64,000 nucleotides of DNA from Bacteroidales bacterium (GTDB lineage: Bacteria > Bacteroidota > Bacteroidia > Bacteroidales > JAGONC01): the NCBI GenBank assembly GCA_028716265.1, contig JAQUQD010000003.1:6191-70190 (forward strand), written 5' to 3'. This document shows positions 4,513 through 59,554 of this stretch, piece after piece (within the stretch, counting starts at the first letter, position 1; each line of letters opens with the position of its first letter). Position numbers and translations under genes: made by a program. The notes under the pieces are model-generated. The model saw nothing but the letters and a program-made list of their open reading frames with translations, was not told the origin of the DNA and did not search any database.

Positions 4513-4517
4513 TTCAA

Positions 4518-9718: not shown

Positions 9719-9726
9719 TATCTTTG
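9719..9726 (+). promoter_or_regulatory. candidate -7 box TATCTTTG upstream of the carboxyltransferase gene
   Basis: Exact TAnnTTTG, 40 nt before ATG 9766. Confidence 0.4.
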
Positions 9727-11698: not shown

Positions 11699-12294
11699 CT
11701 GAAGATCCTGTTCGTATCGGCGATAAGGTCCAGTATTTCCGTTTTACCCTTTCGGGTGAGCGCTGAGGTCATGATGGATGGAGGAAATTCCTCCCAGGTT
11801 GACTTCAAGGCATCCATGAATTCATCGATGTTTTTTTCCCCTTTTAAAAGGGAAATCTTGTCTGTTTTGGTAAACAGGATGGTAAACGGTAGTTGATGTT
11901 CGCCGAGCCAGTTGACCAGTTCAATGTCGATGGGCTGAGGCGGGAGGCGGTTGTCAACCAGGACGAATGTATTCATCAAAGAAGTACGTTCAAGAAGGTA
12001 AGTGGCAATCATTTTCTCCCATTGGATCCTTTCTTTCAGTGAAGACCGGGCATAGCCAAAACCGGGCAGGTCGACCAGGTACCATTCATCGTTGATAAGG
12101 TAATGCTGTATGGCCTGTGTTTTACCAGGTTTCGAAGAGATCCTGGCCAGATTCTTACGGCCGGTGATCATGTTGATCAGGGATGATTTACCCACATTGG
12201 ATCGGCCGATGAAGGCATATTCCGGCAGAGTGGTGTCGGGACATGAGTACACATGGGTGCTGCTGGAGACATAGATGGCGCTTTGGATGATCAT
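11689..12294 (-). CDS. engB: ribosome biogenesis GTP-binding protein YihA/EngB
   Basis: 201 aa. FIGRSNVGKSSLINMI (G1), DLPGFGYA (G3), and TKTDK (G4). Confidence 0.9.
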   Translation of the reverse strand: MIIQSAIYVSSSTHVYSCPDTTLPEYAFIGRSNVGKSSLINMITGRKNLARISSKPGKTQAIQHYLINDEWYLVDLPGFGYARSSLKERIQWEKMIATYLLERTSLMNTFVLVDNRLPPQPIDIELVNWLGEHQLPFTILFTKTDKISLLKGEKNIDEFMDALKSTWEEFPPSIMTSALTRKGKTEILDLIADTNRIFSKK

Positions 12295-13244
12295 TCCCGG
12301 ATTTCTGGTTTATCCTTACGTTTATAGGAAGAAACGTGCCGGTCCTTCTTGATATCGTAGATATCCTCCATGGTAATGAGGATGCCGGATTCCTCCACTC
12401 CTCCGAAATGATGATTGATGCACGTTCCGAACATGCGCATGGTCGCCGACAGGTTCATATAGGCATTCACCAGCGGAGGGATGGTCTCGTTCAGTATCCG
12501 CACATTTTTTATCAGGACACGGTAATCCCCGTCATAGTTCATACCTGTGAAGATCGCCTCCAGTTCGGCGGAGTCAGTGACCAGTGCCAGTGGCTCATAA
12601 GGTCTCGCCAGTTCATCAGGATCGGGGAAATGCTTATGCAGGAAAAAAAGGATCATATCCCTCGCCCGGATGTTGAACCGCGGGTACATGGTGATCTTTC
12701 CGAAAAAATACCTGATCTCCGGATAGTCGATGGTCAGTGCTCCCAGTCCGTCCCAGAGGTTATCGAGCGAATAGATACCTTTTCGCACATTGTACGCCGG
12801 TTGGTAATCAGGTTGTACAAACGATCTTCCCAGCTCAATGGTATAGGGCAGGTAGTCCCTGATAAAGACATCCGAAAGCTGAAAAAGCTGGGCTGTAGGG
12901 GTAAAAAAAGTGCCATCGGGCGTTCGTCTCATCTTTTCACCTTCCAAAAAACGGTATCCTCCGATAATGGCTTTATCCACAGGACTCCATACGATCAGCT
13001 GCTTGAAAGGGATCAGCGGATCGGTATCGAACTCGTCTATGTCCACCTCTTTCCCGGTACCTCCACCGGCGTCCCGGAAGCTGACTTCCCTGAGCCGGCC
13101 CAGTTCGAGCATTGTGTTGGGCGAGTCATGATGGGTGATGATGTAGATCTTCTTGTGGCCATTATTCGTATCACGGACAAATTTATCCTCCGTAAGTTCT
13201 GCCATAATCAGGGCAGGATCAACAGGATCAAGTATTTTTTTCAT
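12291..13244 (-). CDS. GNAT-type N-acyltransferase (OlsB/GlsB-like N-acyl amino acid synthase)
   Basis: 317 aa. The start overlaps engB by 4 nt. Sequence LRLREVSFRDAGGGTGKEVDIDEFD...GGYRF and the position directly downstream of a PlsC-like acyltransferase match the Bacteroidota glycine-lipid gene pair, as I recall it. Confidence 0.6.
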   Translation of the reverse strand: MKKILDPVDPALIMAELTEDKFVRDTNNGHKKIYIITHHDSPNTMLELGRLREVSFRDAGGGTGKEVDIDEFDTDPLIPFKQLIVWSPVDKAIIGGYRFLEGEKMRRTPDGTFFTPTAQLFQLSDVFIRDYLPYTIELGRSFVQPDYQPAYNVRKGIYSLDNLWDGLGALTIDYPEIRYFFGKITMYPRFNIRARDMILFFLHKHFPDPDELARPYEPLALVTDSAELEAIFTGMNYDGDYRVLIKNVRILNETIPPLVNAYMNLSATMRMFGTCINHHFGGVEESGILITMEDIYDIKKDRHVSSYKRKDKPEIRE

Positions 13245-13280
13245 GTTCTTCCTCTCTGTCTAAAGTTCATCCTACTGTTA

Positions 13281-14201
13281 TCAATGGTCCGGTGTGGTCT
13301 GTACTGCAGGATCCGCATCGAATTCGGCCGGTCCGGGGACTCCGATTCCCAGGGCATAGACATGTTCCTTCAGCAATGCTGCCCACTCCCTGTCGGAATG
13401 CCGCCTGTCGAAGACTTCCCAGGAAATGGGTTTACCAAAACGGAACCTCAGTGTCTTGTCGCGCTGTTTTGCCATTTCATCCACCAGGTAGAACATTTCC
13501 AGATTGGCTTTTATCCCCAGACGCTTACGGAAGTTGGAGAGATTATAGAAGAAGTTGGAATTTCTGCCTTCAATGTGAACCGGCACGACAAACCGGTGGT
13601 ATTTGCGCGATTTGGTCACAAAGGTCTTTTTCCATTCCAGGTCGATGATCCTGCCGGATTGCTTGCGTGAACATAAACCGGCAGGGAAGTACAGCAGGGT
13701 GGCATCCGAAGCGAACGTGTCCTCAAAAAGCTGCAAATTACCGGTGTTCTTCCCATGCTTATTGACAGGAATGAAAAGCTCCTTCATATTGGGGATGTTC
13801 AGCAACAGATCATTTACAGGGAATACGACATCCCTCCTTATTCTTCCCACGATACCCATCAGTGCGATCCCGTCGAGGCCGCCCAGCGGATGATTCCCGA
13901 CCACGATGAACCGTTCGGTGGCCCGGAGGTTCTCCAGTCCCTCGCACACCAGCTCCGTCCGGAATTCCTTCAGGATCGCTTCCACGAAATCGAGCCCGTA
14001 CAGATGCCGATTGCGGGAAATGACGTCGTTGAGTTCGTCCACGTGTACGATCTTTTTGATGTACCGAAGAACAAAGCCCGGAAGGATCCTGAGCAGCATC
14101 GGATTTTTGCCGGCAATGATCTTCTCCAGGTCCAGAAATTTCTCTTCGCCCTTCTGCGTGGGCTTTTCCTGAAGTTTCCCCATGTCATCCACAGATTCCA
14201 T
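13281..14201 (-). CDS. lysophospholipid (PlsC-family) O-acyltransferase (OlsA/GlsA-like)
   Basis: HX4D motif in VVGNHPLGGLDG, and FPAGLCSR block. Start set to ATG 14201 (MESVDDMGK...) because a -7 box lies at 14219-14226, inside the longer ORF-track version that ends at 14276. Confidence 0.7.
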   Translation of the reverse strand: MESVDDMGKLQEKPTQKGEEKFLDLEKIIAGKNPMLLRILPGFVLRYIKKIVHVDELNDVISRNRHLYGLDFVEAILKEFRTELVCEGLENLRATERFIVVGNHPLGGLDGIALMGIVGRIRRDVVFPVNDLLLNIPNMKELFIPVNKHGKNTGNLQLFEDTFASDATLLYFPAGLCSRKQSGRIIDLEWKKTFVTKSRKYHRFVVPVHIEGRNSNFFYNLSNFRKRLGIKANLEMFYLVDEMAKQRDKTLRFRFGKPISWEVFDRRHSDREWAALLKEHVYALGIGVPGPAEFDADPAVQTTPDH

Positions 14202-14218
14202 CGTTGACAGTGATAGTA

Positions 14219-14226
14219 CAAATATA
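14219..14226 (-). promoter_or_regulatory. candidate -7 box (TATATTTG on minus strand) for the acyltransferase operon
   Basis: Plus strand reads caaatata, 18 nt upstream of ATG 14201. Confidence 0.4.
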
Positions 14227-14385
14227 ATAAGAATCCGCTTGCCTTCTAAGAGAAAACCGGCAAAAAAGAACGTCATGACCTATAAAAAGGCGAGCTATCA
14301 ACAACGGCATAATGACAGTAACTTATTGAACGTAAAACTATTATAAGGAAAATGAAAAGATATTAACAAAAAGTTGAAACTTTTT

Positions 14386-32858: not shown

Positions 32859-33611
32859 ATGCACAACCGGACTCTCACCGCAAAACTGGCTGTAGTCACA
32901 GCGTTTGCTGTTTCGATGGCTTTCCTGGAGGCTGCAGTAGTCATCTACCTAAGGGCACTGTATTACCCCGGAGGCTTTGCCTTTCCGCTGGTTGAAATGG
33001 ATCCGACCCTGGCCCTGACCGAATTCCTGCGGGAGGCGGCGACCATGGTGATGCTGGTCAGCATCGGATTGCTTCTGGAGCGTAAACCGGTGAACGTGTT
33101 TGCCGTTTTCCTGATAGCTTTCGGGATATGGGATATCGGCTATTACGTTTTTCTTAAATGCCTGCTCGGATGGCCTTACTCGCTGCTGACATGGGACATC
33201 TTATTTCTGATCCCAGTGATGTGGGTTGGACCGGTGATCGCTCCTGTTCTGAACTCGGTGACCATGATCGGTCTGGGGTGGCTTATCCTTCACTTTTCCT
33301 GCCGTGGATTGAATCCCGGCCTTTCCAGGACAGAATGGATCCTTCTGATCGGAGGAGCAATGCTGGTTTATTGCTCCTTTACGGAAGAATTCACGCGGTA
33401 CCTCCTGGATCATTTGCCTGCTGGCGGTATTTTCGGAAAAGAAAACCGGAAGCTGGCAAGTCAACTCTCCGTTCAGTTCATTCCCACGCATTTCCACTGG
33501 TGGCTCTTTCTTACCGGTTTTCTTGCACACCTTATTGCTATCGTCCATTACATTCTCCGCATCCGCAACGTCGGGAAGACCAGGCAAAACACCTTACCTG
33601 TTGCAGGGTGA
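32859..33611 (+). CDS. hypothetical polytopic membrane protein
   Basis: 250 aa with about 6 predicted hydrophobic helices. I recognise no family motif. Confidence 0.45.
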   Translation: MHNRTLTAKLAVVTAFAVSMAFLEAAVVIYLRALYYPGGFAFPLVEMDPTLALTEFLREAATMVMLVSIGLLLERKPVNVFAVFLIAFGIWDIGYYVFLKCLLGWPYSLLTWDILFLIPVMWVGPVIAPVLNSVTMIGLGWLILHFSCRGLNPGLSRTEWILLIGGAMLVYCSFTEEFTRYLLDHLPAGGIFGKENRKLASQLSVQFIPTHFHWWLFLTGFLAHLIAIVHYILRIRNVGKTRQNTLPVAG

Positions 33612-33660
33612 TCCCAATGATCTTTTTTGTATTTTCGCACGGTCTAATGATAAGCTGCAT

Positions 33661-34572
33661 ATGCCGGTTGAAGTAAAGCAGGTTTCAAAGAGATACGGCG
33701 ACCAGTATGCCCTTGACCATGTCACTTTCACAGCGGAGCGTGGTGAAGTGGTTGGATTGCTCGGACCCAATGGTGCCGGTAAATCCACCCTGATGAAGAT
33801 CATTGCCTGCTTCATACCTCCTACCGGAGGGGAAGTTATAGTCAATGGCCACAACGTGATGACAGAATCGGTAAAGGTGCGCCGGATCCTTGGCTATCTT
33901 CCCGAAAACAACCCGCTCTACACCGAAATGTATGTAAGGGAGTATCTTACATTTGTGGCAGGCATCTTTCACATGGGAAAACAGACCGGCAGCCGTGTTG
34001 CCAGGATCATCGAAATCACAGGGCTGCAGGAAGAACAGCACAAGAAGATCCGGATGCTGTCCAGGGGTTACAGGCAGCGTGTCGGGCTGGCACAGGCCCT
34101 GATCCATGACCCGGATGTGTTGATCATGGATGAGCCCACATCCGGACTGGATCCCAACCAGATCATCGGCATCAGGGAACTGATCAGGGGGATTGGCAGG
34201 GAAAAAACAGTCATCCTCTCCACACACATCATGCAGGAAGTAGAAGCCATGTGCAGCCGTGCTATCATTCTTGACCATGGCCGGATCGTTGCAGATGATG
34301 ATCCCCTGAAGCTTTCCGCATCCGCACATGGCAAGGTGCTCATCCTGGCCGAGTTCAGTCAGCCGGTGGCTGCTGGGGACCTGCAAAAGATACCGGGCGC
34401 ACTGGAAGTGGTCCACATCTCAGGCAATACCTATCAGATCACGTCCGGGGCAGGGGAAGATATCCGACCTCTGGTTTTCCAGTTTGCCGTACAATCAGGC
34501 ATTACCGTTCTTTCCCTGAGCAGGAAGGAACAAAGTTTGGAAAGTGTATTTCAGGAACTGACTAAAAAATAA
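33661..34572 (+). CDS. ABC transporter ATP-binding protein, GldA-like
   Basis: MPVEVKQVSKRYGDQYALDHVTF, Walker A GPNGAGKST, signature LSRGYRQR, and Walker B LIMDEPTSGLD. At about 303 aa, the size and N-terminus resemble the gliding-motility GldA. The ORF-track start 33523 is rejected. Confidence 0.8.
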   Translation: MPVEVKQVSKRYGDQYALDHVTFTAERGEVVGLLGPNGAGKSTLMKIIACFIPPTGGEVIVNGHNVMTESVKVRRILGYLPENNPLYTEMYVREYLTFVAGIFHMGKQTGSRVARIIEITGLQEEQHKKIRMLSRGYRQRVGLAQALIHDPDVLIMDEPTSGLDPNQIIGIRELIRGIGREKTVILSTHIMQEVEAMCSRAIILDHGRIVADDDPLKLSASAHGKVLILAEFSQPVAAGDLQKIPGALEVVHISGNTYQITSGAGEDIRPLVFQFAVQSGITVLSLSRKEQSLESVFQELTKK

Positions 34573-34677: not shown

Positions 34678-35988
34678 ATGTCATTTCTATTTACTTCAGA
34701 GTCCGTATCGGAAGGACATCCAGATAAAATAGCCGATCAGATTTCCGACGCCCTGCTGGATGAATTCCTGAAAAGGGATCCCGATTCGAAAGTGGCTTGC
34801 GAAACCCTGGTCACGACCGGTTTGGTTGTATGTGCCGGGGAAGTTCTGACCAGCTGCTGGGTGGACATTCAGAAGGTGGTCAGGGATACGATCAGAAATA
34901 TCGGATATACGAAAGCGGAATATAAATTCGATGCCGATTCGTGCGGGGTTCTCAGTGCCATCCATGAGCAGTCGCAGGACATTACGCGCGGTGTGGTCAG
35001 GAAGGACAAATACGAACAGGGCGCCGGCGACCAGGGGATGATGTTCGGTATGGCCTCGCGGGAGATGGACAACTACATGCCGATGCCCATCGAACTGGCC
35101 CATATCTTCGTTCAGCAACTGGCCAAAATAAGAAAGGAAACTGACCTGATGCCCTATCTCAGGCCCGACTCCAAATCCCAGGTGACCATCGAATACGACG
35201 ACCAGGGCAAGCCCATAAGGATCCATACCATCCTGGTTTCCACGCAGCATGATGACTGGATCAAGCCCGAGGGGCCAGGAGAAGAAGCTCAGCGAGAAGC
35301 GGATGAGAAAATGAACCGGAAGATTCGCGACGACATCCGTAATATACTGATACCAAGAATATTAAAATCCAATGATGTCCCGCAAAGAGTCATTAAATTA
35401 TTCGACGACTCGTACCAGCTGCATGTGAATCCTACCGGGAAGTTCGTCATTGGGGGCCCTCATGGTGATTCAGGCGTTACAGGCCGGAAGATCATCGTGG
35501 ACACATACGGCGGAAAAGGTTACCACGGTGGCGGAGCATTCTCAGGGAAGGATGCATCGAAGGTTGACCGTTCGGCAGCCTATGCCGCGCGACATATCGC
35601 CAAAAACCTTGTGGCCGCTGGTGTGGCCGATGAAGTGCATGTGCAGATCGCCTATGCCATTGGTATAGCCAGACCCCTGAGCGTCAACATCAATACCATG
35701 AATACTGTCAGGATCCGCAAAAGAAACGGAGAGCTCTGGAAAGACCATGAGATCGCCCAAAAAGTGGAAAACATCTTCGATCTGAGGCCCCGCGCCATCA
35801 TCGAACGCTTTGGACTGATGAATCCCATCTTTTTACCCACAGCCACCTACGGACATTTTGGGAGAGATCCTTATAGGAAAAAAGTGGAGTTCTACCACAA
35901 CGATTCCATCGTGAAAAAGGAGGTGGAATTTTTCACCTGGGAAAAACTCGACTACATCGATCGGATAAAGGAGGCTTTTAACGCCTGA
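34678..35988 (+). CDS. metK: S-adenosylmethionine synthetase
   Basis: 436 aa. [31 protein letters not shown], and GGGAFSGKD. Confidence 0.95.
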
Positions 35989-36715
35989 CGACCAGCTTGC
36001 CCGAAGCTACCGACTTACCCCCGGCGCTTAGCGTATAGAAATACATTCCCTCCTGCAGATCGAAGGTGGGCAGTGTCACTTTCCCCTGGCCTTCCGTGAG
36101 TACAGCTTCTTTGACCACTGATCCCAGCAGGTTGTGCACCTCGAGCTTCGCTGTCTGGATCCCGCCAGGCAACGAATAATCAAAGGAAACCGTATTACCG
36201 GCTGGATTTGGATACGCCTGTGAAAGCCGGACCTGGCCGGGTAGATCGCCGTTCAGCCCAAGATACCCAGAGATAAAGTTCACCACAACGCAAACACTGT
36301 CATTGACATTGCCTTCAATGAAAAGCGTGTACTTGACCTTGGATGTTCCCTGGATCCCATTTGGCATGTAATCCGCATATAACTGATCTTCTACCAGCTG
36401 GCCTGCAGCTAATGTATAGGAACCGGGCGATTCAACGGTTCCGGGAGGGTAGCAGGAACCTCCGAAACAGAAATAATGCGTCGTGTTTTCAATAACACTG
36501 ACTTCATGCATTTTTACTTTTACCGGGACACTGACGCTGCTGATGTTCTTGAATCCCAAATGTATGGTAATGAGTGGCTCAGATGGATTTTCCAGAATGA
36601 CTGCGTCCTGGCCGTTGGCCAAAAGTTGGTCCTGGTAATAGAGTTCTAGGGATTGTGAGTATCCTTTGAAAAGGAACAGGCTGCATACAAGAATCAGAGG
36701 GACTATTTTTTTCAT
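35978..36715 (-). CDS. secreted protein with T9SS C-terminal sorting domain
   Basis: Signal peptide [21 protein letters not shown] from ATG 36715. The C-terminal CTD-like region reads [14 protein letters not shown]...[23 protein letters not shown]. Confidence 0.65.
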
Positions 36716-36760
36716 ACGGTAAAGGTTTTCACGAATAAACAATGAATGCAACATCCGCTG

Positions 36761-36768
36761 CAAAATTA
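36761..36768 (-). promoter_or_regulatory. candidate -7 box (TAATTTTG on minus strand) for the 36715 gene
   Basis: Plus strand reads caaaatta, 46 nt upstream of ATG 36715. Confidence 0.35.
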
Positions 36769-36868: not shown

Positions 36869-36876
36869 TATCTTTG
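36869..36876 (+). promoter_or_regulatory. candidate -7 box TATCTTTG for the TGA-containing gene
   Basis: Exact TAnnTTTG, 24 nt upstream of ATG 36900. No comparable box precedes the ORF-track start 37038. Confidence 0.5.
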
Positions 36877-36899: not shown

Positions 36900-38564
36900 A
36901 TGATTAAAAAATTACTTCTTTTTGTATGCATGGTGCTTCCCTTCTTTGTTTTCTCCCAGAGAGCAGAGAGAGCCAATGTGCTGATCGAAGTTTGCACAGG
37001 CACGTGGTGAAGCTTTTGTCCCGGATCAGCTGTCGGTGTGGACAGTTTGATTCTCGCAGGTCATAAAGTGGCTGTCATCAACAACCATGGCGGCGACTCT
37101 TATGAAAATGTTTACTCCGCGGCAAGAAATGCCTATTACAACCTGAGCGCCTATCCTACGGCTATGTTTGATGGCGTTGTTGACGATGGTTTTGGTGGGT
37201 ATCCCTGTCCTGAACCATACGGCAATTATGGCATTTACCTGCCTTTTGTGAACGACCGGCTGGCCATCGCCTCCCCGGTGCTCATGTCCACAGAATTTTT
37301 CCCGGTGGGGGTCAATGATTACCAGCTGGTGGCTCATATTACAAAAGTGGGCGATATCACCAATCCTAACCTGTACCTTCGGGCGGCCATCACCGAATCA
37401 CATGTCGCCCAGTCGTGGCAGTGCCTGGAGGAAGTCAGCCAGGTCAACCGGCTGATGATACCCGATGCCACGGGAACCGCTATCAGTTTCGCAAGCGGCA
37501 ACGAGGTGACCGTCACGCTGAATTTCACGGTGGATCCATCCTGGAATAAGGAAAACCTGAACCTGGTATCGTTCGTGCAGAATGATAACGGAAAGGAAGT
37601 ACTGCAGGCGCTTACCACTCCGTTCCCGCTCTTCTCCAGGGATGCTGTGCTGGCCGAGATGGAAGATATCGCCACTTCAAACTGTACGGGCGTTGTGCAA
37701 CCCACGTTCACCCTTTCCAACAACGGCGCTGAAGCCCTCACCAGCCTGTTGATCAACTACCAGATCAACAATGATCCGCTGGTCTCCTTCGAATGGACGG
37801 GTAACCTTCCCTATACCGGGTCAGAAACCATTCAGATGGATCCCATCACGTTTTCACCCGGAAGCAACAATACCTTCCTGGTTTATGGATCCGATCCCAA
37901 TGGCAACACCGACCAGAATTACCTTAACGACACCCTCTTCGCCAGTTTCCCTGCAGGCTGGGTATGCACCACATATAAAGTGGCGCTCACCCTCCAGACC
38001 GATGACAATCCGGGAGAAACGACCTACGGAGTGTACAACTCCCTCGGTGAGATGATCTACTCCGGAGGTCCGTTCGAAGCAGCCAACAGCATGGTAAGGG
38101 ATACGTTTGAACTGATGAACACCGACTGCTACAAGTTTGTCATGTTCGATGCAGGCTGCGACGGGCTGACAGGAGGCGGGTACTACTCGCTCAAGGAAGC
38201 CAAGTCAGGCGGGCACATGATCTATTTCCATGCAGTGGCGGATGCGTTCACCTGCAAGAAAATGACGGAATTCCAGATCGAATGGGTGGGGATGAATGAC
38301 CACCTGGCCTCCGAACCGGTGACCATCTATCCGAATCCGTTCAGCAAGTACACTGAACTGCGCCTGAACCTGCAAAAGACTGATAATGTGTCAGTTGTGG
38401 TATTCAATATCATTGGAAAACAGGTCTTTTCGCTTGACATGGGACAGCTTGCTGCCGGAGAACATCTCCTGCCACTAACCAGTGAACAGGTTTCCCGGGG
38501 TCTCAACTTCGTGAAGATCAGCATCGGTAACAAGGTGTATACGGAGAAACTGGTGCTGGAGTAA
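36900..38564 (+). CDS. T9SS-sorted thioredoxin-like (CxxC family) protein with in-frame TGA at codon 37: candidate UxxC selenoprotein (alternative: very recent pseudogene)
   Basis: ATG 36900 gives a signal peptide and MIKKLLLFVCMVLPFFVFSQRAERANVLIEVCTGTW-TGA(37008-37010)-SFCPGSAVGVDSLILAGHKV... in the same frame as ORF 37038-38564. The TGA aligns with Cys37 of TGTWCQFCPG in paralog 38721-40385. A hairpin follows the TGA. The gene has its own -7 box and terminator. C-terminal T9SS CTD (IYPNPFSKYTELRL...KVYTEKLVLE). Confidence 0.6.
37023..37053 (+). promoter_or_regulatory. SECIS-like stem-loop 12 nt downstream of the in-frame UGA
   Basis: GGAUCAGCUGUC-GGUGUG-GACAGU(U)UGAUUC: 12 bp including 2 G-U pairs, one bulged U (37048), and apical hexaloop GGUGUG (37035-37040) that starts 24 nt after the UGA. 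Confidence 0.5.
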
Positions 38565-38585
38565 ATAAATCAAGTCATTAAAGAA

Positions 38586-38622
38586 AAAGAGAGGTTGCAC
38601 ACGAGTGCAACCTCTCTTTTTT
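38586..38622 (+). terminator. strong rho-independent terminator after the TGA-containing gene
   Basis: aaagagaggttgcac-acga-gtgcaacctctcttt is a perfect 15-bp stem with a 4-nt loop, followed by a T-run. Confidence 0.85.
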
Positions 38623-38676
38623 GTTATTCATAGTGATTAAGTTGTTATGACCACTAATACAATATCTAAAATGAGC

Positions 38677-38684
38677 TACTTTTG
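38677..38684 (+). promoter_or_regulatory. candidate -7 box TACTTTTG for the Cys paralog
   Basis: Exact TAnnTTTG, 37 nt upstream of ATG 38721. Confidence 0.45.
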
Positions 38685-38720: not shown

Positions 38721-40385
38721 ATGAGAAGATTTACCCTTTTATTTCCCCTGTTTATTACCATCGTTATGGTCAACGCCCAGCAGGTGGATCGCGACAAGGT
38801 GGTAGTGGAGATCGTCACCGGAACCTGGTGCCAGTTTTGCCCGGGTGCGGCCATGGGTGCCGAAGACCTGGTGGCCAACGGTAAAGAAGTAGCTATCGTG
38901 GAGTATCATGGAGGTGATGAGTACGAGAATTCCTCTGGTTTATCAAGGATCAGCTATTACAGTGTCACAGGCTATCCGACCGCAGTATTTGACGGTCTGC
39001 TGAAAGTTGTCGGTGGAGACCATACACAAAGCATGTACTCCCAGTACCTTCCCAAATACAATCAGCGGATCGCCGTCCCCTCTTCCTTCACTATTGATGT
39101 GCAGGGTGAAAACACCTGCCTGGTGAACTACAACCTGACGATCACTGTGAACAGGCTGGAGGCGGTGACCGGAACCCTCAGGTTGCATGTAGCCGTGACC
39201 GAGTCGGATATCCAGGAAAGCTGGCAGGGAATGTCGGAGCTGCAATGGGTCGAACGAATGATGGTGCCCAGTCAGAGCGGGACCTTGCTGGATTTCAGCA
39301 GCGGCGATACCCAGGTGATCAATCTCTCGTTTACCGTGGATGATTCCTGGGTGAGGGAAAATTCCGAAGTGACTGTATTCATCCAGAATGCGACCACTAA
39401 AGAGATCCTTCAGGGAATGAAAAAGAGCATGACGGATTTTCCCAATACCACTCTGGTGGATGCTTCCCTGCTCGAAGTTTACAACATTTCAGCTGCCAAT
39501 TGCTCCGGAGCGGTATCTCCCATCGTTACCCTGAGGAACAACGGGCTGAACAACCTGACCAACCTGGAGATCCGTTACAAGGTGAACGACAACGAGGAAG
39601 GCGTTCTGAACTGGACGGGTGATCTGGCCATGGGTGAGAAGGAAAATGTACCGCTGCCCCTGATCAATTTCCCGCTGAACGACCAGAATACTCTTATGAC
39701 GTATTGTACTAACCCGAATAATGTTCCCGACGAATGTCCAGACAACGATGATGCGAACACCGAATTTTCAGGAGAGGCCCTTATCGCGGCCAGCACCGTC
39801 TACCTGACCTACAGGCTGGATAATTTCCCGGACCAGACTACTTGGGAACTGAGGGATCAGACCGGAGCTGTTCTTTATGCTGATGGCCCTTTCCCGGGAC
39901 AGGCAGGCCTCTATGCTAAGGACACCTTCCAGCTGGCAGGGAACCAATGCTATGATTTCATCATTTATGACAGCCAGGGCAACGGGATCTGCTGTGAAAC
40001 CGGTGTCGGATTCTATTTATTGAAGGACTCGGATGGCCTGGTCCTGGTACAGGGCGGTGATTTTAGTTACAGTGATGTCATCAGTTTTGAGGTGGCGGGA
40101 GGAGTCGGGTTACCTGAAAACAAGGCCAACGGATCGGTTGCCCTCTACCCCAATCCAGCGAGTGATAGGACAACTATTGAAGTCATGCTGATGGAATCAG
40201 CCCCGGTGACTTTAAAAATCTATACTCTCACAGGTAAAATGGTCAAACTGATCGAAAAAGGGATGCTAAGTCCCGGAGAACATCAAATGTGGATCAATCT
40301 GTCGGGAGTTGATCCGGGAGCATATTTCATTCAGATCAATGCGGGAGAAGCAAACTGGACCAAGCAATTGTTTGTCCTGAATTAA
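38721..40385 (+). CDS. T9SS-sorted thioredoxin-like CxxC protein (Cys paralog of 36900-38564)
   Basis: MRRFTLLFPLFITIVMVNAQ signal peptide from ATG 38721, then VVVEIVTGTWCQFCPGAAMG. It aligns with the upstream gene along its whole length. C-terminal CTD LYPNPASDRTTIEV...ANWTKQLFVLN. Confidence 0.75.
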   Translation: MRRFTLLFPLFITIVMVNAQQVDRDKVVVEIVTGTWCQFCPGAAMGAEDLVANGKEVAIVEYHGGDEYENSSGLSRISYYSVTGYPTAVFDGLLKVVGGDHTQSMYSQYLPKYNQRIAVPSSFTIDVQGENTCLVNYNLTITVNRLEAVTGTLRLHVAVTESDIQESWQGMSELQWVERMMVPSQSGTLLDFSSGDTQVINLSFTVDDSWVRENSEVTVFIQNATTKEILQGMKKSMTDFPNTTLVDASLLEVYNISAANCSGAVSPIVTLRNNGLNNLTNLEIRYKVNDNEEGVLNWTGDLAMGEKENVPLPLINFPLNDQNTLMTYCTNPNNVPDECPDNDDANTEFSGEALIAASTVYLTYRLDNFPDQTTWELRDQTGAVLYADGPFPGQAGLYAKDTFQLAGNQCYDFIIYDSQGNGICCETGVGFYLLKDSDGLVLVQGGDFSYSDVISFEVAGGVGLPENKANGSVALYPNPASDRTTIEVMLMESAPVTLKIYTLTGKMVKLIEKGMLSPGEHQMWINLSGVDPGAYFIQINAGEANWTKQLFVLN

Positions 40386-46503: not shown

Positions 46504-47925
46504 ATGATAACAGTTGAAGAATTCAGGCAGTACGGACATTCCTTTGTCGACTGGATGGCCGATTATTTTAAAGAGGTGGAGTGCCTGCCTGTTAAATCCC
46601 AGGTCAGGCCAGGTGAAATATTCCGGCAGATCCCTGAATTACCTCCCGCTGATAGCGAAACCATAGACCAGATCATGCAGGATTTTCAGCAAATCATCCT
46701 ACCTGGAATGACACACTGGCAGAGTCCCAACTTTTTTGCCTATTTTCCTGCCAATTCAAGCTATCCATCCGTGCTGGCCGAGATGCTCACGGCTGCGCTG
46801 GGAGCGCAGTGCATGGTCTGGGACACTTCGCCTGCTGCTGCCGAGCTGGAAGAGAAGATGATGAACTGGCTCAGGCAAATGACCGGCCTGCCCGGGAACT
46901 GGAGTGGTGTCATCCAGGATACCGCTTCGTCGGCGACGCTGGTCGCCATCCTGTCGGCACGCGAGAAATATTCAGATTTCCTGATCAATGAAACGGGGAT
47001 TCACCATCACAAGTCCTTCCGGGTGTATTGTACCTCCGAAACGCATTCCTCCCTCGAAAAGGCAGTAAAAATTGCCGGTCTGGGAAAGAAGAACCTGATC
47101 AGGGTGGAAGTTGACCAACAATTACGGATGAGGCCGGAGGATCTGGAGCAGGCCATCGAAAACGACCTGAAAAATAGAAAAGCACCGCTGGCCGTTGTGG
47201 CCACCCTCGGCACCACCAGCTCCACAGCCGTTGACCCGCTGGAACCAATTGCACGGATCTGCCGAAAATACGATATCTGGCTCCACATCGACGCCGCTCT
47301 GGCCGGCACCGCACTGGTGCTGCCCGAATACCGCTGGATGATCAGGGGCATTGAAAACGCCGACAGCTTTGTGTTCAATCCGCACAAATGGATGTTCACC
47401 AACTTCGACTGCTCGGCCTATTTTGTCAAGGACAGGGAGGCATTGATACGAACCTTTGAGATCCTGCCGGAATACCTGAAAACAAAGTCAAGGGGGATGG
47501 TAAACGATTACCGTGACTGGGGCATTGCGCTGGGAAGAAGATTCAGGGCACTGAAGCTCTGGTTCGTCATCCGTAATTTCGGGGTGCAGGGCATACAGGA
47601 CAGGGTCCGGCTGCATATCACCCTTGCCCGGAAACTTGCTGATGAGATCCGAAAGCAATCCGACTTCGAGCTGATGAACGAGCCTCAGCTGAACTCAGTC
47701 TGCTTCCGCTACAGGCCCGCCAGGGTAGCTCAGGATCGGGAACTTGATGCATTGAATGAGAAGCTGTTAAGCATCCTGAATGCATCGGGAAAAGTCTTCC
47801 TGTCACATACGCGGCTGAACGGAAAATATACAATCAGGATGGTGACATCCCAGACGTATGTACAGGACAAACATGTGATGATGGCATGGGATTTGATCCG
47901 GCGGACGGCTTCAGAAATCACCTGA
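46504..47925 (+). CDS. PLP-dependent aromatic-L-amino-acid decarboxylase (group II decarboxylase)
   Basis: 473 aa. HWQSPNFFAYFPANSSYPSVLAEML, DTASSATL, and the PLP-lysine motif FNPHKWMFTNFDCS. Confidence 0.85.
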   Translation: MITVEEFRQYGHSFVDWMADYFKEVECLPVKSQVRPGEIFRQIPELPPADSETIDQIMQDFQQIILPGMTHWQSPNFFAYFPANSSYPSVLAEMLTAALGAQCMVWDTSPAAAELEEKMMNWLRQMTGLPGNWSGVIQDTASSATLVAILSAREKYSDFLINETGIHHHKSFRVYCTSETHSSLEKAVKIAGLGKKNLIRVEVDQQLRMRPEDLEQAIENDLKNRKAPLAVVATLGTTSSTAVDPLEPIARICRKYDIWLHIDAALAGTALVLPEYRWMIRGIENADSFVFNPHKWMFTNFDCSAYFVKDREALIRTFEILPEYLKTKSRGMVNDYRDWGIALGRRFRALKLWFVIRNFGVQGIQDRVRLHITLARKLADEIRKQSDFELMNEPQLNSVCFRYRPARVAQDRELDALNEKLLSILNASGKVFLSHTRLNGKYTIRMVTSQTYVQDKHVMMAWDLIRRTASEIT

Positions 47926-48650: not shown

Positions 48651-49433
48651 ATGAAAAAAATCATTGTACTTCTGATTCTCGGTTCATTTCTTTCAGGGAT
48701 GCCGGGTTATGCACAGAGCGAGGAGGAGAATAAGGATGAGTGGATCCAGAAATTCTATTTCATCAAGACCGGCAACCTGTGGTTCAATTCCCTGCGGTTT
48801 GATTTTCCGGATATCACCAATACCCGCATCTCCACCGATACGATCCCCGTATACAATGCCTGGGAACAACCGATGGAACTGTCTTTCAATAATTTACCTG
48901 AATATGTTTCAGCACGGATCATTCCCCCCTCCCTTCAACCGAAAGAAGAGGGCAAGATCATCCTGACCTTTGATCCGGTCAAAAAAGGCACCTATGGACC
49001 TGTTTATGAGAACCTGTGGCTTATGACGAATGATACCAATCAAGCTCAGAAGAGACTGATCCTGAATCCAAACATCCGGGAAGACTTTTCCACCCTGACG
49101 GAGCAGCAACTGGCCGATGCTCCGCACATCCAGTTTGAGAAAGAAACCTACCGGTTCGATTCGGTCACCTCAGGATCAAAAGTTGTTTATGACTTCATTT
49201 TCAGCAATGTGGGCAAGAGTGACCTGATCATCCGTAATGTCAAGGCCGGATGCGGATGCACAGCCACCAATCCTGAAAAAACATTGCTTAAGCCGGGAGA
49301 GAGCAGCAAGATCGGGATCGTTTTCGATACTTCGGGGCTGACGGGCAACCAGCACAAGTCAGTCACCGTGATTGCGAATGATCCTAAAAAACCTGTTACA
49401 ACATTAATTATTCAGGGATACACCAAACCATAA
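48651..49433 (+). CDS. DUF1573 domain-containing secreted protein
   Basis: 260 aa. Signal peptide, and the C-terminal block NVKAGCGCTATNPEKTLLKPGESSKIGIVFDT typical of DUF1573. Confidence 0.7.
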   Translation: MKKIIVLLILGSFLSGMPGYAQSEEENKDEWIQKFYFIKTGNLWFNSLRFDFPDITNTRISTDTIPVYNAWEQPMELSFNNLPEYVSARIIPPSLQPKEEGKIILTFDPVKKGTYGPVYENLWLMTNDTNQAQKRLILNPNIREDFSTLTEQQLADAPHIQFEKETYRFDSVTSGSKVVYDFIFSNVGKSDLIIRNVKAGCGCTATNPEKTLLKPGESSKIGIVFDTSGLTGNQHKSVTVIANDPKKPVTTLIIQGYTKP

Positions 49434-49441
49434 AAGGAGTG

Positions 49442-52204
49442 ATGCGCGTCCAGCGTGTATCATATCTCTTTTCGATCCTTCTCCTGACCTTCCCGGTAAT
49501 TCTTACAGGACAAGGACTCCCGCCGGGGTGGGAGTTCCGGGTCACACCCTCCTTTCATCCCATTGCCGTCCCTCTGATCGCCAATCCCTCCCTTTTCGGT
49601 GTTTCGCTACTGCCTGGCGATTATATCGGCGTCTTTTTCACCCGGAACGATTCGTTGATCTGCGCGGGAGCTACCGAGTGGAACGGTGTTGAAAACAGTG
49701 CGGTGGTGGCATTTGGCGATGACAACATGACTCCCCTGAAAGATGGATTTTACGTGAATGAAACTATGTATTGGAAGATCTATTCATGGCAATTTGAAGA
49801 AGCTTTCAACGCTACGGTGACGTATGATCCTTCCCAGCCCAATCACGACGGCACCTTTCACCCGGGAGGCCTCTCCGCTCTGACAGCCCTCTGGTACGGC
49901 TCCACACTGGAAGCCGGTGCGACTGCTATCCCGGATAGCCTTTGCATTGGCACTGCTTCCCAACTGACCTCATCCGTATCGGGAGGCAGTGAGTCATACA
50001 GCTTTTCCTGGACCTCCATCCCTGAAGGATTCATTTCCGGAGAACAAAATCCGGTGGTCGTCCCCCTGCAGACCACAGCTTATGTTGTACACATATACGA
50101 TGGGTACCACAATGTCACCGACACCGCCGCAGTCCATGTCGTCCAATTGCCGGAGGTGTCGGCCGGCAATGACACAGTGATCTGTGAGGACGGGCAGGCC
50201 AGCCTGGCGGGGATGGCGGCAAACTTCAACAGTCTGGAGTGGTCCACGGATGGCGATGGTGTGTTCGCAGATCCATCGCAGCCGGCCACTGACTATTTTC
50301 CAGGATCATCCGATATCGACGACGGACTGGTCAAGCTAACGCTGAAAGCCTTGGCAGAAGATCCGTGCGTGGACTCTACCAGTGATTTTCTATACATGAC
50401 CATTGGTCCTTTACCAACAGTCGATGCCGGGGATGATGGTGATGTCTGCGCGGATGATCCCTATACCCTTTCAGGCTATGCTGCCCATTCAGCTTCAGTG
50501 GAATGGTCCACCTCCGGTGACGGTTCCTTTGACAATCCCTTTTACCTGGGAGCAACCTACTACCCCGGGACCGGGGACCTGCAGACCCACGAAGTCAACC
50601 TGATCCTCTCAGGTTACTCCGAATCTCCATGCACAATGACCACGAATGACACAATGACTTTATCTATTTACTCCCTGCCTACCGTGGACGCCGGTAACGA
50701 CCACTGGATCCCTTACGGCACCGGCACGCAACTGAACGGCACCGTTTCCGGTGGATCGGGAGAGTATCTGTATTCATGGGAGCCGTCGGAATTTCTTGTG
50801 GATCCGTCGATGGAAGATCCGTTCACCACGAACCTGTTCCAGTCCACGCCATTCATTCTGACCGCGACCGATGCGGTCCTCACCTGCCATGACACGGATA
50901 CGGCAATTGTTTACATCACCGGAGGGCCCCTTTCCGTTTCAGCATCGGCCTATCCGCCGATCATCTGCACGGGCTCCGCGTCGCGTCTGGAGGCACTTGC
51001 GGGAGGAGGCTCCGGCAATTACGCTTACAGCTGGGCCTCAGAGCCGCCGGGTTTTTATTCCAGCGAGCAAGATCCCTGGATCTACCCTGATCTGACAAGC
51101 CTTTACACGGTGGTCGTGAACGATGGATTCAACAGCACTTCCGACACCGTGACAGTGCAGGTTTTCTCCCCTCCGGAAGCCCATGCCGGAGATGATCAAA
51201 CCATTCCCTACGGGACCTGCACTGTGTTACAGGGCTCCGTTTCAGGAGGCTTGGGAGAATTTTCGTGGCAGTGGTCACCGGCACAGTACCTGGTTGATCC
51301 GCAGGCAGAGGATCCGGTGACCGTCAACCTGACCCAGTCGGTGGAATTTGCAGTTACTGTGACCGACCAGATAACACAGTGCACAGATCAGGATTCGGTG
51401 AATGTCGCTGTGGTGGGCGGACTGTTGCAGGTAGAGGTGACCGCGGTGCCGGAGGAGGTGTGCGCAGGGGAATCCTCGCAGCTGAGGGCGCAGGCAGCCG
51501 GCGGCTCAGGAAACTATTCCTATGCCTGGACTTCCGATCCGCCTGGATTCTTTTCGGATCTTACTAATCCTGTGGTGGCACCTGGCGGCACGACAGGTTA
51601 TTTTGTGCTGGTGTCCGATGGGTACAGCAGTGTTTCCGGTCACACCACGATCGGTGTCTTTCCGGTTCCCGTCGTGGAGATCGGAACCTTTCCCGGCGAC
51701 ACCGTCTGTGGTGGGGAGGTCATTCGTCTGGATGCCGGCACACCCGGCGGCGTGGCGTACCACTGGCTGCCCGGTGGGCAGACGGGGCCCGTGATCGAGG
51801 TGGATTCGGCCGGGACAGGATTCGGTTCCGCGACGTACACTGTATATGCTACAACGCCGGACAATTGCACGGGGGTGGATTCGGTTGTGGTGACGTTCGT
51901 TGATTGTGTGGGGATACCGGAGAACGCGTCGCCGGATACCCGGCTGTTCGTTTATCCGAATCCGGCGAGGGGGGAGGCATTTATCCTGATCTCAAAAGAC
52001 CAATATGCATCTCAGAATGATAAGTCCGGTATTTATCAAATCGAGATAACAGATATTATAGGTCGGGTGCAACTTCATGATTCTTTTCCTGTCAAGGAAT
52101 CCTTGCATTCTATATCCCTGGAATCGTTTTCACGTGGTATCTATCTTGTTTTTCTGAAAAAGGAGAATCAGGTCACCTTGACAGGAAAGTTAGTCGTCTG
52201 GTAA
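49442..52204 (+). CDS. large modular surface protein with T9SS C-terminal sorting domain
   Basis: About 920 aa. Signal peptide MRVQRVSYLFSILLLTFPVILTGQ. Alternating repeated modules (SGGSxxYxYxW...) and the CTD FVYPNPARGEAFIL...VTLTGKLVVW. ATG 49442 preferred over GTG 49439. Confidence 0.7.
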   Translation: MRVQRVSYLFSILLLTFPVILTGQGLPPGWEFRVTPSFHPIAVPLIANPSLFGVSLLPGDYIGVFFTRNDSLICAGATEWNGVENSAVVAFGDDNMTPLKDGFYVNETMYWKIYSWQFEEAFNATVTYDPSQPNHDGTFHPGGLSALTALWYGSTLEAGATAIPDSLCIGTASQLTSSVSGGSESYSFSWTSIPEGFISGEQNPVVVPLQTTAYVVHIYDGYHNVTDTAAVHVVQLPEVSAGNDTVICEDGQASLAGMAANFNSLEWSTDGDGVFADPSQPATDYFPGSSDIDDGLVKLTLKALAEDPCVDSTSDFLYMTIGPLPTVDAGDDGDVCADDPYTLSGYAAHSASVEWSTSGDGSFDNPFYLGATYYPGTGDLQTHEVNLILSGYSESPCTMTTNDTMTLSIYSLPTVDAGNDHWIPYGTGTQLNGTVSGGSGEYLYSWEPSEFLVDPSMEDPFTTNLFQSTPFILTATDAVLTCHDTDTAIVYITGGPLSVSASAYPPIICTGSASRLEALAGGGSGNYAYSWASEPPGFYSSEQDPWIYPDLTSLYTVVVNDGFNSTSDTVTVQVFSPPEAHAGDDQTIPYGTCTVLQGSVSGGLGEFSWQWSPAQYLVDPQAEDPVTVNLTQSVEFAVTVTDQITQCTDQDSVNVAVVGGLLQVEVTAVPEEVCAGESSQLRAQAAGGSGNYSYAWTSDPPGFFSDLTNPVVAPGGTTGYFVLVSDGYSSVSGHTTIGVFPVPVVEIGTFPGDTVCGGEVIRLDAGTPGGVAYHWLPGGQTGPVIEVDSAGTGFGSATYTVYATTPDNCTGVDSVVVTFVDCVGIPENASPDTRLFVYPNPARGEAFILISKDQYASQNDKSGIYQIEITDIIGRVQLHDSFPVKESLHSISLESFSRGIYLVFLKKENQVTLTGKLVVW

Positions 52205-58012: not shown

Positions 58013-58039
58013 GTTTATAATTGATGGCGGCATTTGCTG

Positions 58040-59554
58040 ATGACACTTTTATCTTCCATTTACAAAGGGTATGTTAGCAAAAGGATCCGGCGGATCCAAT
58101 TCTGCATGGACCATCCCCACCAGGTGCAGCAGGAATGGTTTCACAGGCTGCTTGCCACAGCGGAGAAGACGGAGTGGGGAAAAAAATATGGTTATTCATC
58201 AATAAAGGACCATAAGGAGTTCGCGGAGAGGGTCCCGGTGAGCGATTATGAATCGTTCAAGACACTCATTGCCAGGATCCGGAATGGCGAGCAAAATATC
58301 CTCTGGCCCTCCAGAATAAACTGGTTTGCCCGTTCATCCGGCACCACGGGGGATAAAAGCAAGTTCATCCCCATTAGCAGAGAATCCCTGCAGGAATGCC
58401 ATTACAATGGCGCCAAGGACCTGATTTCCCTTTACTGCCACCATCACCCCGCCACCAGGTTCTTTACCGGCAAGGGACTGATCATGGGCGGAAGCCATCA
58501 CGCCAGCAAAGTGAACCACAAATCGTATTATGAAGGTGATCTTTCAGCCGTTTTGATCGAGAACCTGCCGTTAATTGCTGATATCCTCCGCGTGCCTGGC
58601 CGCTCCATTGCCCTGATGAGCGAATGGGAATCAAAAATTCAAAGGATCGCTGAAAGCACCATCCATAAGAACGTGACCAGTCTCTCGGGAGTTCCCTCCT
58701 GGACCCTTCTGCTCCTCAAACGCATCCTGGAGATGACCGGCAAGCCTACCATCAGGGAAGTCTGGCCCAGCCTGGAAGTATTCTTCCACGGTGGGGTTAA
58801 TTTCCTTCCCTATAAAGACCAGTTTAACAAGATCATCCCTCCTGAGGGAATGAATTACGTTGAAACCTACAATGCCTCGGAGGGATTCTTTGGCATACAG
58901 GACCTTCCCGAAAACAACTCCATGCTGCTGATGCTCGATCACGGAATCTTCTATGAGTTCTGCCCGCCAGACCAACTGGGGAAGGATCACCCGCGGGTCA
59001 AAACGCTTGACGAGGTATCGGAAGGTGAAAATTATGCCATGATCATCTCCACCAACGCCGGGCTGTGGCGCTATATGATCGGCGACACGATCATCTTCAC
59101 ATCGCTGGATCCGTACCGCATCCAGATCTCCGGACGTACAAAAAGCTTTATTAATGTAGTAGGCGAAGAACTGATCGTGGATAATGCCGAAAAGGCCATT
59201 TCAATCGCCTGCCAGCGAAGCCATGCTGTCATTAATGAATATACGGCCGCCCCGGTGTTTTTCAGCGATTCGGAAAATGCAGCCCATGAATGGCTCATCG
59301 AGTTCGAAAAACCTCCGGCCGATATAAGGGAATTCTGCATCCTGTTCGATGAAGCACTCAAATCCCTGAACTCTGACTATGAGGCTAAACGCCACCAGGA
59401 TATGGTACTCCGCATGCCCATCATCCGGATATTGCCTTCGGGCACTTTTTACCGGTGGATGAAACAAAAAGGGAAACTGGGCGGCCAGAATAAAGTTCCC
59501 CGTCTGGCGAATAACCGCATGTATGTGGAAGAGATCCTGCAAATCCTGGAATAA
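58040..59554 (+). CDS. GH3 auxin-responsive-promoter family (acyl-adenylate-forming) protein
   Basis: About 504 aa. FARSSGTTGDKSKFIP adenylation motif and YNASEGFFG. A common Bacteroidota GH3-like protein. ATG 58040 preferred over TTG 58034. Confidence 0.8.
   Translation: MTLLSSIYKGYVSKRIRRIQFCMDHPHQVQQEWFHRLLATAEKTEWGKKYGYSSIKDHKEFAERVPVSDYESFKTLIARIRNGEQNILWPSRINWFARSSGTTGDKSKFIPISRESLQECHYNGAKDLISLYCHHHPATRFFTGKGLIMGGSHHASKVNHKSYYEGDLSAVLIENLPLIADILRVPGRSIALMSEWESKIQRIAESTIHKNVTSLSGVPSWTLLLLKRILEMTGKPTIREVWPSLEVFFHGGVNFLPYKDQFNKIIPPEGMNYVETYNASEGFFGIQDLPENNSMLLMLDHGIFYEFCPPDQLGKDHPRVKTLDEVSEGENYAMIISTNAGLWRYMIGDTIIFTSLDPYRIQISGRTKSFINVVGEELIVDNAEKAISIACQRSHAVINEYTAAPVFFSDSENAAHEWLIEFEKPPADIREFCILFDEALKSLNSDYEAKRHQDMVLRMPIIRILPSGTFYRWMKQKGKLGGQNKVPRLANNRMYVEEILQILE

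Follow-up and report, generated by a model that had tools for sequence, protein, structure and literature searches.

We analyzed a 64,000-nucleotide stretch of DNA from a Bacteroidales bacterium of the GTDB lineage JAGONC01 (assembly GCA_028716265.1, contig JAQUQD010000003.1; hereafter, the window). One of its genes, located at 36900–38564 on the forward strand (gene 1), very probably encodes a 554-residue secreted selenoprotein that is mis-annotated in public records. An initial annotation of this DNA, made from the sequence alone, had proposed that gene 1 is a selenocysteine (Sec)-containing protein with a UxxC motif. This reading is supported by conservation of its in-frame TGA, by a TGT at the same codon in a positional ortholog, by purifying selection, by the standard genetic code of the organism, by a hairpin that falls within published limits for bacterial selenocysteine insertion sequences (bSECIS) and by alignment of the codon with Cys48 of HBP35 (hemin-binding protein 35) from Porphyromonas gingivalis. 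Our confidence is limited chiefly by the reach of the searches for sel genes and tRNA-Sec, which covered the window, its flanks and a set of related loci (related loci are denoted below by L numbers).

From the ATG at 36900 to the TAA at 38562–38564, the frame of gene 1 spans 554 codons and contains a single internal stop, the TGA at 37008–37010 (codon 37), our proposed Sec37 codon. The initial annotation had aligned this lone TGA with Cys37 of a tandem paralog (gene 2, 38721–40385, forward strand), and the sequence bears this out. Residues around the TGA in gene 1 read EVCTGTW-TGA-SFCPG; gene 2, which has the same length, reads EIVTGTW-C-QFCPG, with the Cys encoded by TGC at 38829–38831. The predicted redox motif of gene 1 is thus U-S-F-C (37008–37019), placed at the beginning of thioredoxin-fold helix alpha-1. 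Upstream of the TGA, the N-terminus of gene 1 (MIKKLLLFVCMVLPFFVFSQ) has, by eye, the n-h-c shape of a Sec-pathway signal peptide. In this predicted peptide (36900–36956; MIKKLLLFVCMVLPFFVFS, followed by Gln), an n-region with KK precedes 14 hydrophobic core residues, and the likely cleavage site is Ser/Gln.

Open reading frame (ORF) callers and public annotation hide this front end, as the initial annotation had recognized for an ORF list, by taking a GTG at 37038–37040 as the start. The GTG falls within the apical loop (37035–37040, GGUGUG) of the SECIS-like hairpin described below. In GCA_016294925.1 (contig JAEAME010000010.1), for example, gene 1 is called as a 508-amino-acid protein from this codon. 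The GTG is probably not the physiological start of gene 1, because its product would possess a type IX secretion system (T9SS) C-terminal sorting domain (CTD) without a signal peptide.

Several observations establish that the TGA is not an artifact. Gene 1, TGA included, is identical over its 1665 nt between GCA_016294925.1 and an independent Logan assembly of SRR22315506. By scanning genome and metagenome collections for orthologs and paralogs, we located at least nine additional copies, 66–90% identical to gene 1 in protein sequence, in which this codon is again TGA; their frames are otherwise intact, at 553–557 codons as far as the contigs extend. Syntenic orthologs among them include L001/L008 (JAKLFC01, Ga0116153; 90% identity over a 242-amino-acid N-terminal query, 87% full-length) and L002 (Lentimicrobiaceae metagenome-assembled genome [MAG] JAGONC01; 81%), and paralogs are found at L003, L004 and L009, the latter two on both strands (66–71%). 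The orthologs are equal in length to gene 1 and carry the same lone TGA. An error in sequencing or assembly that converted TGC or TGT to TGA is therefore effectively refuted, by the identical codon in an independent assembly and by nine or more relatives that carry it in other assemblies and samples, and we give this explanation a negligible probability. The minus-strand copies at L004 (~4961–3300) and L009 (1916–246) are second Sec paralogs arranged divergently to the first copies. They read EVCTGTW*SVCPGSAVAVDS, where the asterisk denotes TGA, and share the hairpin stem, with the loop GCUGUA. Counting these divergent copies, MAG JAGONC01 holds at least four TGA copies of the gene 1 family.

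One locus presents the alternative state of the codon. L010 (Ga0209096_1000103, 3001–4662) contains a positional ortholog of gene 1 with 69.5% identity over 553 amino acids and TGT (Cys) in place of TGA. Gene order there is the same as in the window: metK, a 261-amino-acid T9SS protein, gene 1 and gene 2. Since the two loci share this order and TGT replaces TGA, window gene 1 and its L010 counterpart constitute an orthologous Sec/Cys pair, which by sequence is a recent Sec/Cys switch inside a single locus. Tabulated across orthologs and paralogs, the codon is TGA in at least nine copies and TGT in L010, and the TGA-bearing frames are otherwise intact. Pairing of Sec with Cys extends well beyond these loci, as more than 120 of 154 proteins compared (150 family representatives and 4 close orthologs) have W-C-x-x-C.

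The pattern of substitution indicates that the region preceding the TGA is translated. Using Nei-Gojobori counts between gene 1 and six relatives, we obtained ratios of nonsynonymous to synonymous change (dN/dS) of 0.10–0.25 for codons 1–36 and 0.05–0.26 for codons 38–95, with proportions of synonymous differences (pS) of 0.23–0.67. Codons 1–36, which include the conserved signal-peptide segment, are therefore under purifying selection in the gene 1 frame, and the TGA persisted as adjacent synonymous sites diverged. Reassignment of the genetic code does not account for the codon and is ruled out, since TGA terminates 21 of 51 other window genes, including ftsZ, metK, tgt, mraZ and rsmH, as expected under the standard code. 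A scan of the window for further TGA-split frames returned shadow ORFs only. On these sequence comparisons, the TGA of gene 1 is real and selected.

These data also bear on the possibility that the TGA is a true stop, in which case gene 1 would be a pseudogene, or would yield a peptide of 36 residues, a cytoplasmic protein of 508 residues initiated at GTG 37038, or both. Public calls begin at 37038 or its equivalent and are labeled "partial," and there is precedent in HBP35, which gives rise to N-terminally truncated cytoplasmic forms via internal starts (PMC2907840). However, the 36 upstream codons are under in-frame purifying selection and encode a predicted signal peptide, and the TGA arrangement is conserved across species and paralogs in a frame that is otherwise undamaged. 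The 508-residue product would moreover retain a T9SS CTD without any access to the periplasm, and its thioredoxin fold would be missing both beta-1 and the active site. We regard termination at this codon as highly improbable.

In thioredoxin-type CxxC motifs, the N-terminal Cys is the attacking residue and the classical site of Sec/Cys exchange. To place the TGA of gene 1 relative to such a motif, we modeled the fold of the gene 2 N-terminal module with AlphaFold 2 from a 59-sequence alignment and extended the result to gene 1 via the 33–37% identity between the two proteins. The gene 2 model is of high predicted quality (pLDDT 95, pTM 0.90) and contains a strand at 26–33, the CxxC at 37–40, a helix at 40–52 and a b2-a2-b3-b4-a3 succession that leads into a beta-sandwich. 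As modeled, the module is a thioredoxin fold with its dithiol at the N-terminus of a helix. In a Foldseek search of the Protein Data Bank (PDB), the best match to this model was HBP35 (5y1a; E 4e-14, TM 0.76, 251 aligned columns), which aligns across both halves of the module; the Omp28 structure 2r2c covers the beta-sandwich. A profile search of PDB sequences likewise placed HBP35 at the top, followed by the thioredoxins 1fo5 and 1nho. The profile alignment sets the family motif WCsyCpg on residues 47–53 of HBP35 (WCGYCPG), such that the Sec column corresponds to HBP35 Cys48.

Homology to the gene 2 model positions a predicted thioredoxin-fold subdomain at approximately residues 25–122 of gene 1 (36972–37265), followed by an Omp28-like beta-sandwich subdomain at approximately residues 123–242 (37266–37625). 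The latter assignment derives from PDB entry 2r2c, by sequence and fold, and from the Pfam Omp28 family (PF11551, gathering score 34.9), for which gene 1 falls just under threshold at 34.3 bits and gene 2 passes at 38.6. A central region of about 230 residues (37626–38324) is conserved in orthologs; it contains no recognized domain and returned no Pfam match even at E≤1. The C-terminus of gene 1 (residues 476–553; 38325–38555) is a type A T9SS CTD. In agreement with the initial annotation, which had inferred export from such a domain, both PF18962 (36.8 bits, cut-off 27) and TIGR04183 (41.5 bits, cut-off 23) exceed their thresholds, and the CTD of gene 2 is also above curated thresholds. Gene 2, with the motif WCQFCPG, shares this architecture overall and is 33% identical to gene 1 over its full length.

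The TGA is not confined to the immediate relatives of gene 1. Using HMMER with the N-terminal 243 residues of the Cys paralog gene 2 as query, we recovered a family of 2449 clusters (E≤1e-3). Across its 150 best representatives, TGTWCxYCPG hardly varies. Four of these 150 begin right after the motif; upstream DNA is available for three, and all three proved to be hidden TGA forms. In total, TGA occupies this column in four further clades. One comprises L015–L017 (for example, L017 2815–3867; LLEINTGTW*GYC[QR]YS), with 35% identity and the TGA at the same column. The others are represented by L019 (EITTGTW*YYCPG, with a PKD/GEVED C-terminus), L020 (ESATGTW*SYCPY, with a T9SS CTD) and L025 (EIATGTW*YYCPG). 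The occurrence of hidden TGA codons in several clades implies that Sec forms recur across this family and are consistently mis-called. Members of the L015–L017 clade carry C-terminal dockerin-like repeats and no T9SS CTD, so that the Sec module appears joined to differing surface-attachment domains. In L020, a related metK...hutU locus, the Sec form adjoins a 554-amino-acid relative (1130–2794) that has SCGPC, a classical motif of thioredoxins, instead of WCxYCPG and is 28–30% identical to the window genes.

Bacterial selenocysteine insertion ordinarily calls for a hairpin downstream of the UGA, and the initial annotation had noted one here. We located it at 37023–37053 (GGAUCAGCUGUC-GGUGUG-GACAG(U)UUGAUUC), with a predicted energy of −13.5 kcal/mol alone and −16 kcal/mol with flanks. 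Its 6-nt loop starts with GG and lies 24 nt from the UGA. The upper stem has 5 bp with 7 further pairs below, or 7 contiguous pairs as counted by our criteria scan, in which G-U pairs replace the bulge. Published bSECIS criteria specify a loop of 3–9 nt with G within the first two positions, an upper stem of 4–16 bp, a distance of 16–37 nt from the UGA and a minimum free energy of ≤−7.5 kcal/mol (PMC13188914); the gene 1 hairpin falls within all four limits. Among relatives, a U-A pair has become G-C in L003, a compensatory change, and L004 and L009 keep a lower stem with a shifted register. The three synonymous differences within the hairpin are confined to the loop, the bulge and a G-U that becomes G-C. 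In the Cys ortholog L010, this segment is encoded by alternative synonymous codons (GGT, GTT, GAT) and forms no compliant hairpin. The difference in predicted hairpin energy between Sec and Cys forms is of marginal significance (Mann-Whitney p=0.04). The hairpin is consistent, at the level of sequence and predicted structure, with a SECIS element.

A number of results weigh against selenocysteine insertion at this codon. Statistical support for the hairpin is weak, for which reason we take it as SECIS-compatible, short of proof. Nine of its 12 pairs are invariant and one shows a compensatory change, and across six sequences this does not exceed shuffle controls. Synonymous sites are variable at 3 of 6 positions within the hairpin vs 31 of 46 elsewhere, a difference that is not significant (p=0.34). 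Applied to 10 Sec and 9 Cys forms, our implementation of the criteria scan passes 8 and 4, respectively, and the criteria must therefore be regarded as permissive. Rfam yielded no match over the whole window at gathering thresholds, nor over 36960–37110 at E≤10. The first Cys is missing from some family members, replaced by Trp in P0042 (GTWWYYCPG) and by Thr in P0123/P0145 (GTWTQYCVG, GTWTSSSVG), indicating that this residue is not strictly needed for the fold. The Trp of P0042 may reflect a Sec codon altered by mutation or misread in sequencing, as TGG is one base from TGA.

The Sec machinery was likewise not encountered in the sequence we examined. ARAGORN found no tRNA in the window or in ten related loci. 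NCBIfam models identified no sel genes among 40 window ORFs, with the dcw cluster at 16.2–28.3 kb set aside, and selA, selB, selD and tRNA-Sec were also absent from ~9 kb on either side of the window. A tblastn search of 274 kb of related loci with Escherichia coli SelA, SelB and SelD gave no match. We judge these absences uninformative rather than negative, because the searches cover the window and its flanks, a part of a 387-kb contig, and related loci. One candidate for the Sec-tRNA synthesis enzyme SepSecS, a pyridoxal phosphate (PLP)-dependent decarboxylase at 46504–47925 (forward strand), was rejected; its TIGR03531 score of 27 bits, against a cut-off of 225, reflects generic fold-type I PLP similarity.

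Taken at face value, the lack of Sec machinery in the examined sequence, the Trp at this column in P0042, one base removed from TGA, and the weak hairpin statistics would fit a different scenario, in which an ordinary tRNA (near-cognate Trp or Cys, or a suppressor) reads the UGA and a full-length exported protein is made without selenium. We consider this unlikely, because a standard-amino-acid codon would be expected to have replaced TGA: TGG and TGY are far more efficient and differ from TGA by a single mutation, but ten or more copies retain TGA. Moreover, flanking synonymous sites diverged around the retained codon, and TGA arose or persisted in four further clades. At the affected column, a thioredoxin CxxC has its nucleophilic Cys, the position that Sec classically occupies, and NF045500/GOS_C, a sister clade, is accepted as a UxxC selenoprotein family.

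Considering these lines of evidence together with motifs flanking the gene, we propose the following path for the gene 1 selenoprotein. Transcription would start downstream of a −7 promoter box of the Bacteroidota type TAnnTTTG (TATCTTTG, 36869–36876), 23 nt before ATG 36900, and end at an intrinsic terminator at 38583–38632, which consists of an 18-bp stem (38583–38622) with a 4-nt loop and a T run. Both elements had been described in the initial annotation and were found essentially as stated, including the lack of a second TAnnTTTG on the forward strand between this box and 37038. Boxes of this type at 9719, 32831, 38677, 58005 and 59591 stand at similar distances before other window gene starts, the one at 38677–38684 belonging to gene 2. 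The promoter box is supportive, short of proof, because the window total of 35 boxes barely exceeds the 25 ± 5 expected by chance. Translation begins at ATG 36900, as selection on codons 1–36 indicates, and would run to the TAA at 38562. The hairpin, which begins 13 nt past the UGA, may recruit SelB and Sec-tRNA(Sec) for insertion of Sec at 37008–37010. The signal peptide would direct export via the Sec translocon, with cleavage probably after Ser19 to leave Gln20 as the new N-terminus. By analogy with HBP35, the type A CTD would then hand the protein to the T9SS for release or surface anchoring. In the mature protein, Sec37-x-x-Cys40 would take the place of the CxxC dithiol in an HBP35-like module, with Sec at the attacking N-terminal position. 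HBP35 and general selenoprotein chemistry suggest that this UxxC module may act as a thiol/disulfide oxidoreductase outside the cell, with a selenenylsulfide intermediate.

HBP35 likewise combines a thioredoxin fold bearing WCxYCPG with an Omp28-like beta-sandwich. It has an N-terminal signal peptide, as is predicted for gene 1, and a T9SS CTD, as gene 1 does. It is secreted and surface-attached or modified by the Por/T9SS via this CTD (PMC3120885). In the assays of Shoji et al., recombinant HBP35 outpaced E. coli thioredoxin in reducing insulin disulfides, and a C48S/C51S mutation abolished this activity (PMC2907840). HBP35 differs in having Cys48 where gene 1 has Sec37 and in its length of 344 amino acids, as it is without the ~230-residue central region of gene 1. 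The structural alignment shows ~16% sequence identity. In HBP35, hemin binding has been mapped to residues 135–344; it should not be assumed for gene 1. The Omp28 lipoprotein of P. gingivalis (PF11551, NF033782, 2r2c) matches the beta-sandwich half of the module alone, and for the NF033782 lipoprotein model the score is 34 bits (cut-off 150).

Among curated selenoproteins, a sister clade is covered by NCBIfam NF045500, "Omp28-related selenoprotein," equated in a 2026 review with "hypothetical protein GOS_C" and assigned the motif UxxC (PMC13188914). GOS_C was defined by Zhang and Gladyshev in 2008 from ocean metagenomes as a family of thioredoxin-like fold and unknown function, with 74 Sec and 312 Cys sequences in the Global Ocean Sampling (GOS) data and SECIS-like hairpins after the UGA (PMC2398784). 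NF045500 is homologous to both gene 1 (E 6e-10) and gene 2 (E 4e-22), and a UxxC in a thioredoxin-like fold is common to it and gene 1 (U-S-F-C, the fold taken from the gene 2 model). However, gene 1 (39 bits), gene 2 (79 bits) and the other Sec clades (46–82 bits) all score below the NF045500 cut-off of 200 bits, which puts gene 1 and these Sec clades outside the equivalog. The sources differ as well: GOS_C was defined from marine surface-water reads, whereas the gene 1 clade comes from Lentimicrobiaceae-like Bacteroidota MAGs. A profile search for NF045500 relatives returned 83, none of them named as a selenoprotein.

Exported UxxC selenoproteins of other kinds have been tabulated, among them DsbA-like form 1, thiol-disulfide isomerase-like, TlpA-like and redoxin family proteins (PMC13188914). 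These oxidoreductases share with gene 1 a thioredoxin fold, Sec as the N-terminal residue of the CxxC, the existence of Cys homologs and a predicted extracytoplasmic location. They belong to other fold subfamilies and lack both the Omp28-like sandwich and the T9SS sorting domain. Further predicted exported or outer-membrane selenoproteins include DsbA-like proteins, a TonB-dependent receptor and an MtrB/PioB-type barrel (PMC13188914).

In light of these precedents, the novelty that the initial annotation implied for gene 1, as a T9SS-exported, surface or extracellular selenoprotein, was overstated, given the curated NF045500/GOS_C family and the outer-membrane selenoproteins already predicted (PMC13188914). 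As classified from its sequence, gene 1 is of a kind already known, an extracytoplasmic UxxC selenoprotein of the Omp28-related/HBP35-like superfamily. What is new is a T9SS-CTD-bearing clade of Lentimicrobiaceae-like bacteria that, judged by profile scores, is distinct from NF045500 and was missed by the curated model and by annotation. The explicit link from GOS_C-type proteins to HBP35, drawn here from profile and structural alignments, is also new. Within the library of papers searched, none meaningfully links selenoproteins with type IX secretion, and on that basis ours is the first stated connection between the two.

Other genes in the window provide context for gene 1. The 261-amino-acid T9SS CTD protein found directly upstream is encoded at 35978–36763 on the reverse strand, in conserved synteny. 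Additional genes related to T9SS or gliding are those for a 921-amino-acid SprB-like CTD protein (49439–52204, forward) and gldA (33523–34572, forward). A DUF1573 protein at 48651–49433 (forward) scores 89.7 bits against NF041425, "OS_HP2 family (seleno)protein," just below the cut-off of 100, and is a second window gene from a family with known Sec members. We rejected it as a hidden Sec gene, as it is a Cys form (KAGCGCT) that ends in TAA. At 12291–14276 (reverse) and 58034–59554 (forward), the window also contains a glycine-lipid synthesis pair, GlsB/GlsA, above curated cut-offs, and an OlsH-like GH3-family enzyme (402 bits against a cut-off of 620). A dcw cell-division cluster lies at ~14.4–29.9 kb.

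If our interpretation is correct, gene 1 would put a Sec redox center at or beyond the outer membrane. We tentatively entertain a more ambitious proposal, which we view as possible rather than probable: that gene 1 is the first recognizable T9SS-cargo selenoprotein and belongs to a multi-copy system of Lentimicrobiaceae-like bacteria, with at least four Sec copies in one MAG and a Sec/Cys tandem in a conserved locus, in which Sec and Cys versions of an HBP35-like surface oxidoreductase are used according to selenium supply. Were this true, a Bacteroidota anaerobe would display selenocysteine on its surface or release it from there. Every close ortholog we found carries an N-terminally truncated or "partial" public annotation, and NF045500 does not reach them. 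With at least five clades of the 2449-cluster family hiding Sec forms, counts for the selenoproteomes of Bacteroidota- and Cloacimonadota-type anaerobes are likely too low. The link between GOS_C and HBP35, whose structure, thioredoxin activity and T9SS export route have all been established, makes the function of this family testable. Finally, the Sec/Cys pair formed by the window and L010, together with the tandem Cys paralog, may offer a natural system in which to address the benefit of Sec over Cys in an extracytoplasmic oxidoreductase.

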